A stretch of DNA of 64,000 nucleotides from Schizosaccharomyces osmophilus (GCF_027921745.1 NC_079239.1:3410001-3474000); one strand, 5' to 3'; counted from the first letter of the stretch, positions 55,935 through 60,137 are shown. Notes: generated by a model from the letters alone, not told the origin. Translations and numbers: made by a program.

Positions 55935-56063
55935 AGCTTACAGCACCCCGGATTCCCATGTTTTCTCCAACCATAGTATTGGACTAACGAGACCCTCAGA
56001 CGTTTTCACTTAACTGCAGTGATCGGACGGGAACTGGTATTATCCCTAGGTATGGCCGTAGAC
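55935..56063 (-). rRNA. 5S rDNA copy with insertions (likely pseudogene)
   Basis: Full-length 5S match of 129 nt, with the same 6-nt insertion as the 43114 copy and a different 5-nt insertion at the same site. Confidence 0.9.
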
Positions 56064-56819
56064 GTTCCTAGTTGTCTATTAAGCTACTTTTATTATGAGG
56101 TACTCGTCCAGTATTATTTTGCTTGATGTCCTTTAAGATCCATCCCTACTCAGCTCTATCTGTGGTATTTTGTCACGGTTGAATGGAGAATTCATTCATG
56201 TTATATTATAAGAATAATGTTTGAAAACACACTGTTTTTCTCTTTTCTATTGGTTCACATCCTACTAGGCTGTCAGAGCTTTGTTTCTACGCCGCTAAGT
56301 GTAAGACTCAGCGCATGAGTTTATGGGTTTAAAAAACCCTTGTACTTACATATATTTGGATCCACTAATATATTTTCATAGTGCGTCGACTTGACTCACC
56401 ATATAAACGATAATTTAATTTATTAAGCTACATCTGTCGAATCTTTTAATCTGAAGATTTGTGCTTTCTACGCTGTGAATCAATTTTACCTCTGGCGATA
56501 ATCACTTTCGTCCTTGCCATTTATGAATTATATGCGGAAAGTACGAAGTTCATTACGACAGAATTTTCGTCGGAATAATTAAATAATCATTAAAAAGGTG
56601 TTCTATTCACGAAGAAGATGAACAATGCGTAAACAACGATGCTGTGAAACGAATCAACAGATTCATGAAAGAGCGAATAAGAAAAGCAATTAAAGCTATA
56701 ATATTAAGATAATGCTTACTTTGGTGGATGCGAATGCAGAAACTTGATGGACTGCAATTGACATGGATGCTTCCAAAGAAGATGCGAAATATAAAGAATG
56801 AAAGCAGGTTCGGTAAAAC

Positions 56820-57962
56820 TCAAACTTCAGCGCTTTGCTCAGCAAGAGGCTGAAGTTCCATTTCTTCGTTCTGAGGTACTTGCTCTCCTCGATTTGTTCC
56901 TTTAAAATAGGTTAATAAAGCCCTAACGATAGCAAGCATTTACGAAGTGTACATACCTAAAATACGATCCACAGCGTTTCCTATACCATTTCCTATACCA
57001 TTTCCTATTCCGTTTACGCCAACGCCTATGCCGTTTCTCAGATCGACGATAACTAATCTTAGTAGTAGTTCACGTGCTTTTGCATTCACTAGAACAGTTA
57101 GAATATTTCGCGGGTGTATGACATACTCGTCAAATAAAGAAACAAGACAACGTTAACAAACCAAACAGCATAGTAAAAATGATTGTTTATCTTTTCAAAT
57201 CCTGTGAACTTTTTTGCAGCATAATACACGACAAAACCAGGGACATCGAGAAAACACACATATAATACTGAGATACACATAGCTGACAATACGTTTTTGG
57301 TTAACCTTCCAGCTTGCGTGAACCATTCTTTAGGCATTTGAAATATTGCTAACAATTAATAAATCTTTCAAAATAAAAGACAGCGCTAACTTACCAAACA
57401 AAAACAATGCAAAGGATGCTACACAGCCAGCAGAAAGCCCCCAAAGGTCTAGCGCATTCAAAGAAAGCTTGAAATAAAAGAATACGACAAGAAAAATAGC
57501 ATAAAATATCATATACGCAAAAGACGTAAAAAACAACAAGTGCATTATAATCTGCCACGTATTCGTCCAACCCGATCCAGAGTTATTAACAGATTCTTGG
57601 GCGGAATTCTGAGCGGATCCATCAGCCATTTCGAGATCAATAAATTTGGTTGAAGCTAATGGATGTATTAGTAATAATTCGTTGTTTGTGAAAGGATAGA
57701 GGTATTCGCCCTGTTTGTTGACAGTTATCGACAAGGTTATTAGTTTCAAACCCGACAAATAAATAAACAAGCATGATTCTTCCATCAAGAACCGTTCAAA
57801 AAGCACGCAAAAAATCAACCTTTCCTTTCTATTTCAACTAATCTTACCTGTATACGGAGGAGGCGTACCATCTGAAGGAGACGACCGACTATCTGCCTTT
57901 TCATCATTGAGCGTTTTGGAAGAGTCATCAGAACCTGAAATAGGAGTGTATTTGTTTTTCAT
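56820..57962 (-). CDS. wtf: wtf meiotic drive (poison/antidote) gene, 5 exons; 269-aa antidote, ~222-aa poison from ATG 57629
   Basis: Exons 57962-57848, 57655-57395, 57348-57127, 57088-56957 and 56899-56820 splice in frame (810 nt). PPPY in exon 1, in-frame ATG in exon 2, NGIG repeats, and a QSAEV* end. Confidence 0.9.
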
Positions 57963-58851
57963 ATTTACAATGGCAATTAAGTCCCAAAATGATACTGACT
58001 TTTACACTCTCAACGAAATCAACTAGAATCACCAAGAAAAGTCCGTAGAAACTGGTTCCACTTCTCAAGGATCTGTCAAAAATCTGTCAGAAAAAAAAAA
58101 GGAATTGGATCTTGCTTAAAAGCAAACTTTATTTTGCAAGATTAGTTTGCTTTAAAACCAAAGATACGATTCTGAAAAAATCTTGGTAGTGGCTTTTCGC
58201 ATGTCTTAATTCATAAAAGCAGTGACATTATGTCACTGACTGGTCACAGTCCTCATTGCGATTTTTCGTAATAGTATAATCCAAAAGAGTCGTCGTTTAT
58301 TACAAAATGTAAACAAAGGAACATTTGGCAAAACAACCATGCTGTTTGCTTTGAATGATATATACACGGGATTGGAAGGTTCAGTGACCGTGGCTTAATG
58401 AACTCCAGGGAAAAGCTCGAACACTGGATTTTCGTAGCCTTACTTTTAGCATTCGTAAATCCATCGGAAGTCTGGAAAAGCAACGTTTAAACTGTCACGA
58501 ACAGCATTTGTACTGACAAGTACATCTTTATTTTTATTTAATTTATTTTAATCACACGATAGAAACAAACAAAAGCGATTTCGGACTGTTCATTCATTGT
58601 AAATTTATATAGAATAGCGTACGCTTACTAGCTATCGGTATGTGTGTCAGAGAGGGTGGATGACAGCTTCACCACTGCAAAACTTCTAGTCATTGCCATT
58701 GTGGACTCGATTCATGTAGTTTGGAGTTGTTACAAAGTAGATTTTATTAAGCTTGTTAGTCGGATCGGATGTGTGCTACTGTTTTAAAAGTTCTGACATG
58801 AGTTTGGGTGTTTACTGCCTATTTGAGTAGGTTTTGAAGGGGTTTCAGAAA

Positions 58852-59706
58852 ATGATTGAAAAAAACAAATACAAAAAGCTAAAAGATGCTGATTCAGCTG
58901 ACGTTCCTCGCTTGGGCACTCTTGCAACGTTTGACGGTGAACTGCCACGGTACAATGAAATCTTTTATTCTCATCTAGACGACTTGGAAAAAGGTCATGC
59001 ACCTCCGTACTCTGAAAACAGACATCAAGAAGCGTCTACCAACATGGCAGGAGGAAATATATTCTCTATTTCTTTACGAAATGTCTTGACGGCATTATTG
59101 TGGTTAATTTTCTGGCCGGCAAAAATTGTGAGAATCCCCGAAGCACAACGCAGACAGGAAAATGAATCTGCTCGGCTTAGTTTTTGCTTTATTCTTTCGG
59201 TCATAGTAAACTTTTGGTTTTCTTACAAATACCTTGTCCCCTTTATAAAGGAATCGATGAAAGAATCTGTACGGGTAAACTTTCAAGCTACTGTAGCAGC
59301 TGTTCTTGTCGTCGTGGCTTTCTACATGTTTCTATATGTTTGTTCATGTAAGTGAAATGATGGAATTTTAATTAAATATGTTTACTAATGGGGTACTTTT
59401 AGTGTTGGTGGATATAATCGTTATATTGATTCCTCTAGTTGTTTCTGGGATTTCCTCGTTTTTTTCTGTGATTTTTTTTGTGATTACTAGTGCTCTAGGC
59501 TTCAGGATGTCATCGGATAGAAACGACTTGATGGATGATAATAGTATAGTAACCCATTAAACAGCTTGCCAGCAGAGCCTGAAAACCAGTTCAACAATCG
59601 TAGTGATGATACTTTTAAACAACCGTCCTCTGAACATACTGAGCGATCTCCAGGGTTACGCCAGGAACCGGGTCAGTCTAGGGATGTTGAAAGCGGTGGG
59701 AGTTGA
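58852..59706 (+). CDS. wag: wtf-associated (wag-like) multi-pass membrane protein; 5-bp duplication truncates it at 59560 (217 aa vs 264 aa repaired)
   Basis: Head-to-head with the wtf gene and between two 5S copies. Exon 1 is 58852-59347, intron 59348-59402 (GTAAGT..TACTAAT..TAG), exon 2 starts at 59403. ATAGT-ATAGT at 59541-59550; TGTTTAC at 58809. Confidence 0.7.
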
Positions 59707-60022
59707 TTTATACGGAAAGTAAAGCATTGTTTGTTCTTTTCAATTTTTCTCCAGCATGCTTATGCTTATATTTTTGTTTCATCTTTGCATTTTGTTTCTT
59801 ATATTTATTCGTCAAGCACTTTATAATTACTGATCCTTGTAACATCTTTTCAATTCTAACTAATAAGGAATTTAATTAATTATTGAATCATGGATGACCA
59901 TTGCTTCCTGCAATCACTAGTAGCTATAAGTCAAACGTCTATGTCGATCACGATGAAAGCCATGTGCTTCAATTTTTAAAAGAGCAACAAAGAGAAGCAA
60001 AAAGTAAAATAAAAAAGTGAAA

Positions 60023-60137
60023 AGCCTACAGCATCCCGGATTCCCATGTTGTCTCCAACCATAGTACTAACGAGACCCTCAGACGTTTTGACTTACTGCA
60101 CTGATTGGACGGGAACTGGTGTTGTCGTCGCCTAGGT
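60023..60137 (-). pseudogene. 5S rDNA pseudocopy lacking its 5' end
   Basis: AGCCTACAGCATCCCGGATTCCCATGTTGTCTCCAACCATAGTACTAACG... is the reverse complement of 5S. It carries a variant of the 6-nt insertion and lacks the first ~12 nt. Confidence 0.88.

Follow-up and report, generated by a model that had tools for sequence, protein, structure and literature searches.

The 64,000-nucleotide (nt) stretch of Schizosaccharomyces osmophilus DNA analysed here (the window) contains, at positions 56820-57962 on the minus strand, a five-exon wtf gene that stands head to head with a wag gene, the pair being flanked by two 5S ribosomal RNA (5S rRNA) genes. With high confidence, the region can be identified as the annotated gene wtf34, an intact gene predicted to kill spores by encoding both poison and antidote, accompanied by a frameshifted wag copy and by 5S flanks on its own strand. 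An initial annotation, made from the sequence alone, had described the region as a complete 5S-wtf-wag-5S selfish cassette with an apparently intact poison-antidote driver, and every sequence feature that it listed was found in place.

The position of the window on chromosome 2 follows from published coordinates. Table S4 of the reference genome paper (Jia et al., 2023, G3) lists wtf34 (SOMG_04068) among the protein-coding genes at chr2:3466820-3467962 (-), which corresponds to window positions 56820-57962 with an offset of 3,410,000, and wtf33 (SOMG_04063, syntenic with wtf40) at chr2:3454022-3455141 (-), which corresponds to 44022-45141 with the same offset. Since this offset also fits the span of the wag gene (SOMG_04069, "hypothetical protein", chr2:3468852-3469706, +) and that of SOMG_04067 (chr2:3464286-3465653, +), which matches an amidohydrolase open reading frame (ORF) in the window, the window is chr2:3,410,001-3,474,000 of S. 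osmophilus CBS 15793T. The agreement held when the published chromosome 2 coordinates were checked against the genes of the window: its three 5S rRNA genes are found at matching places in Table S5 of the same paper, and the products of seven of eight other ORFs are exact protein entries, whose 90% clusters contain S. osmophilus and S. octosporus proteins. The sister strain CBS 15792 shares 99.73% average nucleotide identity with CBS 15793T, with 41 of 42 wtf genes reported as syntenic, and Figure S12 of Jia et al. (2023, G3) pairs wtf34 with wtf41 and marks neither as a pseudogene. The wtf34 locus, including the mechanism by which such units spread, is already published and part of the reference annotation, and is not new; wtf34 is one unremarkable representative of an established family of selfish spore killers and appears by name in both S. 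osmophilus genome papers.

Structure and predicted products of wtf34

The exons of wtf34 lie at 57962-57848, 57655-57395, 57348-57127, 57088-56957 and 56899-56820 (-), measure 115, 261, 222, 132 and 80 nt, and are separated by introns of 192, 46, 38 and 57 nt, all four of which are bounded by GT and AG and carry a branch-like CTAAC, CTAAT or TTAAC close 5′ of the acceptor. The span of this spliced model equals that of Table S4. Single-frame ORF lists show the gene merely as pieces, as the initial annotation had pointed out, and removal of the introns yields a coding sequence of 810 nt that is open in frame and encodes 269 amino acids ending in AEV. An alternative acceptor for intron 2, with exon 3 starting at 57327 and a product of 262 amino acids, was rejected because the relatives keep the sequence AIFQMPKEWF and the published exon 3 measures 222 nt.

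The codons of exon 1 (57849-57962, -) specify the N-terminal tail peculiar to the antidote, in which PPPY occupies residues 34-37; the PY motif is kept in all 15 aligned Wtf relatives. A second in-frame ATG, 26 nt into exon 2 (57627-57629, -), is the predicted start of the poison and would give a short form of 222 amino acids; an exon 2 ATG of this kind has been reported for most intact wtf genes of these species. Exon 4 contains a 12-nt tandem repeat (56977-57008, -; 2.7 copies with 100% matches according to Tandem Repeats Finder) encoding the NGIG repeats of the protein, for which several membrane-spanning segments are predicted from hydropathy. The divergent intergenic region (57963-58851) separates the ATG of wtf34 from that of the partner gene at 58852 (+) by 889 nt, the length of the "wag21_wtf41" wag_wtf_region in the general feature format (GFF) file of the second genome paper (De Carvalho et al., 2022, eLife 11:e81149). 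On the other side, the spacer between wtf34 and the downstream 5S gene (56064-56819, -), the counterpart of which is annotated as "wtf41_5S_down" in that file, forms part of a duplicated wtf-5S unit.

This gene model also bears on the possibility that wtf34 is a decaying pseudogene or a set of chance ORF fragments. Besides the fragmentary ORF lists, it could be argued that 11 of the 42 S. osmophilus wtf genes are reported to be pseudogenes, and that the product of wtf34 itself is missing from the results of a protein search with exon 2, in a collection that holds the wag and wtf33 products. The possibility is nevertheless already refuted by a spliced frame of 269 uninterrupted codons, joined at canonical splice sites that are accompanied by branch-like sequences, and is further contradicted by exon sizes identical to those of the published wtf41 model, by the protein-coding status of the gene in Table S4 and by the absence of a pseudogene mark in Figure S12, so that we regard it as extremely improbable.

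Family membership and relatives

The search with exon 2 gave 34 candidate proteins, 16 of them at E <= 0.01, which comprise eight entries named "wtf meiotic driver [S. osmophilus]" and eight uncharacterized proteins from S. octosporus. The best match, P0001 (99% identity to the exon 2 translation, E 3.5e-46), is the nearest annotated Wtf protein: the whole wtf34 product is 91.4% identical to it (245 of 268 aligned residues) and 44-79% identical to the 15 others. In addition to this homology, wtf34 displays the five-exon structure with the expected exon sizes, the ATG in exon 2 and a single PY motif in the N-terminal tail; it lacks a confident FLEX (Mei4) motif in intron 1, which membership of the family does not require and which the intact S. 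osmophilus genes are reported to do without. Judged by its sequence, wtf34 is a wtf gene of the branch formed by S. octosporus together with S. osmophilus and S. cryophilus, and the initial assignment to this lineage, based on the antidote-type PY motif, the exon 2 ATG, the wag neighbour and the same-strand 5S genes, stands.

The syntenic allele of the unit in the sister strain, wag21-wtf41 of CBS 15792, has been described in detail (De Carvalho et al., 2022, eLife 11:e81149). Its exons of 115, 261, 222, 132 and 77 nt plus the stop codon equal those of wtf34, and its introns measure 193, 46, 38 and 57 nt, so that only intron 1 differs in length. Further shared features are the wag-wtf spacer of 889 nt, the wag span of 855 nt, a 5S gene at either end, oriented in tandem with the gene, and GTCAACAAACA in intron 1. 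According to published work, wtf25 of S. octosporus resembles wtf34 in having five exons, with the antidote translated from exon 1 and the poison from an ATG in exon 2, in belonging to the same lineage-specific family and in the single PY motif of the antidote tail. It has features of its own, namely an intron 1 with an exact GTAAACAAACA, a long and a short transcript documented in meiosis, and drive demonstrated in its host, and differs from wtf34 in having neither a 5S nor a wag neighbour. In S. pombe, wtf4 and cw9 produce two isoforms of multi-pass membrane proteins from alternative transcription starts, as is predicted for wtf34, and PY-dependent ubiquitination separates antidote from poison. 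The S. pombe genes differ in being flanked by Tf long terminal repeats instead of 5S genes, in carrying two conserved PY motifs instead of one and in lacking wag neighbours, and the Wtf proteins of S. pombe share at best about 16% amino-acid identity with those of the S. octosporus lineage.

Intron 1 and the candidate promoter of the short transcript

Intron 1 (57656-57847, -) is the putative internal promoter of the short, poison-encoding transcript. It contains GTCAACAAACA at 57722-57712, on the sense strand of wtf34, together with RYAAAYA forkhead cores, of which there are five; 2000 shuffled sequences averaged 0.56 and never reached that number. The forkhead-like sites reported in the initial annotation are present. 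The same GTCAACAAACA is given in 18 of the 42 rows of the FLEX table of De Carvalho et al. (2022, eLife 11:e81149), that of wtf41 among them. Matches to FLEX with at most one mismatch are more frequent in the window than expected (13 against 2.6), so that one such site in intron 1 proves little. The published table places the GTCAACAAACA hit opposite to the gene strand in wtf41 and the other carriers, whereas in the window it lies on the sense strand.

Other FLEX-like sequences were noted in the window. The divergent spacer contains GTAAACAAAGG, with an intact forkhead core, at 58309-58319 (+); counted upstream from the start codons, it lies 543 nt from that of wag and 347 nt from that of wtf34. 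Exact GTAAACAAACA (FLEX) motifs occur three times, at 52551-52561, 52585-52595 and 30270-30280, all on the minus strand; the first two are 34 nt apart, just past the tRNA genes at 52032-52103 and 52340-52410. These exact sites may mark genuine Mei4 target promoters.

Predicted poison-antidote function

In the wtf family, a long transcript encodes the antidote and a short transcript that starts in intron 1 encodes the poison. The tail of S. pombe antidotes binds ubiquitin ligases of the Rsp5/NEDD4 family, Pub1 among them, through PY motifs, four S. octosporus antidotes turn toxic when de-ubiquitinated, and a single conserved PY motif is reported for all intact wtf genes of the present group of species (Zheng et al., 2023, Nat Commun). 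For the allele in CBS 15792, wtf41, published assays in Saccharomyces cerevisiae showed that the exon 2-5 product inhibits growth, an effect partly relieved by the exon 1-5 product (De Carvalho et al., 2022, eLife 11:e81149).

By analogy with the family and with wtf41, wtf34 would operate through two isoforms. A long transcript initiated upstream of exon 1 would be translated into the 269-residue antidote, the PPPY motif of which would recruit ligases of the Rsp5/NEDD4 family (Pub1 and Pub3 in S. pombe), while a shorter transcript, made in meiosis from a start within intron 1, would yield a 222-residue poison, beginning at Met48 and devoid of the PY tail. The poison would reach all spores and kill those that did not inherit wtf34. 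The flanking 5S genes would be a likely substrate for the copying of such units to new 5S sites or for their loss.

A number of observations weigh against this proposal. The best FLEX match in intron 1 carries one mismatch, which falls inside the forkhead core, and the FIMO p value of GTCAACAAACA, 2.48e-5, misses the cutoff of 3e-6 for a "confident" Mei4 site; by the same published analysis, intron 1 lacks a confident site in all 31 intact wtf genes of S. osmophilus (De Carvalho et al., 2022, eLife 11:e81149), and the description of the short form as Mei4-driven in the initial annotation is overstated. One of the two S. osmophilus poisons assayed in that study, wtf19, was non-toxic. Among seven wtf genes deleted in S. 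octosporus, which alone of the three species is reported to have genetic tools, three were clear drivers and two were weak, although the genes had been picked for high poison expression. The assayed allele wtf41 was compared with wtf34 by exon and intron lengths only, a comparison compatible with substitutions between the two. The Pfam WTF model, built from S. pombe sequences, gave no match at E <= 1 with the exon translations or with full-length P0001 and P0006; this is expected at the low identity between the two lineages, and the link to the S. pombe wtf genes consequently rests on published PSI-BLAST searches, gene structure, synteny and function. A literature search found no S. osmophilus drive test, meiotic RNA or evidence for a short transcript, the RNA described in the reference genome paper being from vegetative cells only (Jia et al., 2023, G3). 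Contigs from one sequencing run (X1, 0.22 of words shared) were short, the longest having 884 letters, and were 90-99% alike with many differences; they most likely derive from paralogous or related units and have no bearing on transcripts or on the wtf34 allele.

These points leave room for an intact gene that fails to drive actively in its host, producing little or no poison and persisting as a silent copy or as a suppressor that supplies antidote only. The missing confident FLEX site would be in keeping with such a gene, as would the S. octosporus data, in which stronger drive goes with more of the poison isoform (De Carvalho et al., 2022, eLife 11:e81149), clear drive was limited to the three genes mentioned and a short transcript was reported as detectable in only 31 of 48 intact genes. 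Conversely, wtf34 keeps its exon 2 ATG, which is lacking in wtf16, described as the sole antidote-only gene of S. osmophilus; the short form of its syntenic allele is toxic in S. cerevisiae; and 14 S. octosporus genes reported to lack a confident FLEX site nonetheless produce short transcripts. Moreover, between wtf33 and wtf34 intron 1 is conserved at 98.4%, compared with 71.9% for exon 2, and contains five forkhead cores. An inactive wtf34 is therefore a substantial possibility, to which we give somewhat less than even weight.

The interpretation of wtf34 as a spore killer remains likely by analogy with its relatives, while the chances that it causes measurable drive in its own host are estimated as falling just short of even. 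The functional interpretation in the initial annotation was right in kind, as judged from the family and from the wtf41 assay, but its claim of a functional unit exceeds the evidence.

The wag neighbour

The partner of wtf34 is a frameshifted wag gene (SOMG_04069; 58852-59706, +), with exon 1 at 58852-59347 and an intron at 59348-59402. A search with the wag protein gave 148 candidates, 30 of them at E <= 0.01; its own product aside, 14 S. osmophilus paralogues share 64-98% identity with it, and the reference protein of SOMG_04069 (P0031, 256 amino acids) is 100% identical over exon 1. The two-exon reading (496 and 304 nt, with an intron of 55 nt) is out of frame and meets an in-frame stop at 59558-59560 after 217 codons. 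Five extra bases are present near 59549-59553, a point through which 20 of 27 family proteins are continuous. To obtain the reference protein, 59544-59572 (+) has to be spliced out, a segment of 29 nt that begins with GTATAG, a poor donor, ends with CCAG and has its sole branch-like sequence 3 nt after the donor; this implausible second intron of SOMG_04069 is likely to be an annotation patch over a frameshift or pseudogene. In the GFF file of De Carvalho et al. (2022, eLife 11:e81149), the intact gene wag20 has two coding exons of 496 and 275 nt, and wag21 is represented by a span feature with zero coding-sequence features. The copy beside wtf34 is thus a homologue of the wag family without an intact two-exon ORF and, as read from the sequence, could encode no more than a protein without the conserved C-terminal tail. 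The cassette can consequently not be called complete, as it had been in the initial annotation, the 5S copy beyond wag also having a degenerate 5′ end.

Database searches contributed little to the nature of the family: a Pfam scan found no meaningful match for wag, and a search of the ESM Atlas with a wag paralogue returned no usable match. The shared N-terminal KNKY, PY motif and membrane segments raised the idea that wag is a diverged wtf gene, which was rejected because alignment of 27 wag and 15 Wtf proteins with hhalign gave a probability of 0.1% (E 0.48). A distant wag-like coding region at 32410-33059 (-), with about 30% identity over some 158 residues and a second piece in another frame, lies beside none of the 5S or wtf genes of the window.

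In the alignment of 27 wag sequences, which come from three species, LP[RK]Y is kept by all and xP[PST]Y by 26, both motifs being located in the N-terminal tail, ahead of the membrane segments. As a lead only, these PY-type motifs could be the same kind of Rsp5/NEDD4-binding signal as that of the Wtf antidotes. On this view wag products would not be mere passengers but membrane proteins sorted by ubiquitin, using the Pub1/Pub3 route jointly or in competition with the antidotes and thereby tuning drive, a proposal that we consider unlikely; if it were true, the frameshifted copy described here would be one that has lost this role. In the literature searched there was no mention of PY-type motifs in wag proteins, and no work going beyond the papers cited here on what wag genes do or on how wtf genes are expressed in S. 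osmophilus.

The 5S flanks and the age of the locus

Both flanking 5S genes are on the strand of wtf34 and match the Rfam model RF00001 over positions 1-120, above its gathering score of 38 bits, in agreement with the same-orientation flanks originally described. The copy downstream of wtf34 (SOMG_10086, 55935-56063, -) scores 52.5 bits (125 nt in barrnap), and that beyond wag (SOMG_10087, 60024-60149, -) scores 40.9 bits (104 nt in barrnap) and has a degenerate 5′ end, with no intact helix I, three non-standard pairs being found on each side of the Rfam alignment. The third 5S gene of the window (43114-43243, -; 69.8 bits, 124 nt in barrnap) is 92.3% identical to the copy at 55935-56063. Compared with the Rfam consensus, all three copies have six additional bases, either TGAAAA or TCAAAA, following the conserved TTAAG, and two of the three contain a further 5-nt insert.

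An association with 5S genes is reported for 79% of the wtf genes in S. osmophilus, and models involving gene conversion and circles have been proposed for the 5S-mediated spread and loss of such units (De Carvalho et al., 2022, eLife 11:e81149). The presence of wtf31 in one of the two S. osmophilus strains and its absence from the other have been credited to flanking 5S genes. At the wtf34 locus, the two flanking copies are identical at 109 of 135 positions (80.7%), with a longest perfect run of 23 nt, and the pair wtf41-wtf42 is described as completely syntenic with wtf56-wtf57 of S. octosporus and as not lineage-specific (De Carvalho et al., 2022, eLife 11:e81149); both observations are to be added to those that weigh against the proposal of a spore-killer unit. 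Recombination between the two flanks should be possible but inefficient, and the degenerate state of the copy beyond wag makes the unit a poor candidate for 5S-5S excision. The locus is old and not a recent insertion.

It is about an even question whether the cassette has long been fixed in place, with 5S flanks that have ceased to allow excision or copying, in which case the layout would be a relic and not that of a mobile unit. The divergence of the flanks, the lost 5′ end of one of them, the decay of the wag copy and the synteny with S. octosporus agree with such a history, as does the occurrence of the unit in both sequenced strains with equal intergenic and wag lengths. The variable presence of the 5S-flanked wtf31 between these strains speaks for continued mobility, as does exon 2 of wtf34, which resembles that of P0001, on another chromosome (99%), more closely than that of wtf33 (72%). 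The initial proposal that the unit can be copied or excised by 5S-5S recombination agrees with the published gene-conversion, circle and deletion models, and is weakened for this particular pair of flanks.

Comparison with wtf33

The second intact five-exon wtf gene of the window, wtf33 (44022-45141, -), was located by tblastn; its exons of 115, 249, 222, 117 and 80 nt encode P0006 exactly. It has a 5S gene downstream only (43114-43243) and no wag neighbour, and is 1120 nt long, compared with 1135 nt listed for wtf40 in CBS 15792. On sequence evidence, the wtf33 and wtf34 units are read as a duplicated 5S-wtf block. The identity between them forms a mosaic, in which exons 2, 4 and 5 (71.9, 76.5 and 81.5%) are far more diverged than introns 1, 3 and 4 (98.4, 100 and 98.3%), with exon 1 at 100%, intron 2 at 67.3% and exon 3 at 90.5%. 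The spacer between wtf and 5S gene is 85.7% identical, with blocks at 94-98%, the first approximately 450 nt upstream of the wtf34 ATG are 93% identical, and homology extends to about that distance from the ATG on one side and to the outer edge of the 5S gene on the other. The closer similarity of exon 2 to the gene for P0001, on the 5.57-Mb chromosome, than to that of the neighbouring wtf33 points to recent ectopic exchange within the gene, a pattern that fits the ectopic recombination reported for the wtf family. Two paralogous genes for NADPH dehydrogenases of 403 amino acids, at 38736-39947 (-) and 47842-49053 (-), about 9 kb apart, flank the wtf33 unit.

Concluding remarks

The wtf genes are the best understood single-gene meiotic driver system, and their persistence over some 100 million years is a notable published result. 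Since that result is in the literature and both genome papers on S. osmophilus already name the wtf34 locus, the main value of the present finding is to demonstrate that a wtf-wag-5S unit can be recognized correctly from raw sequence.

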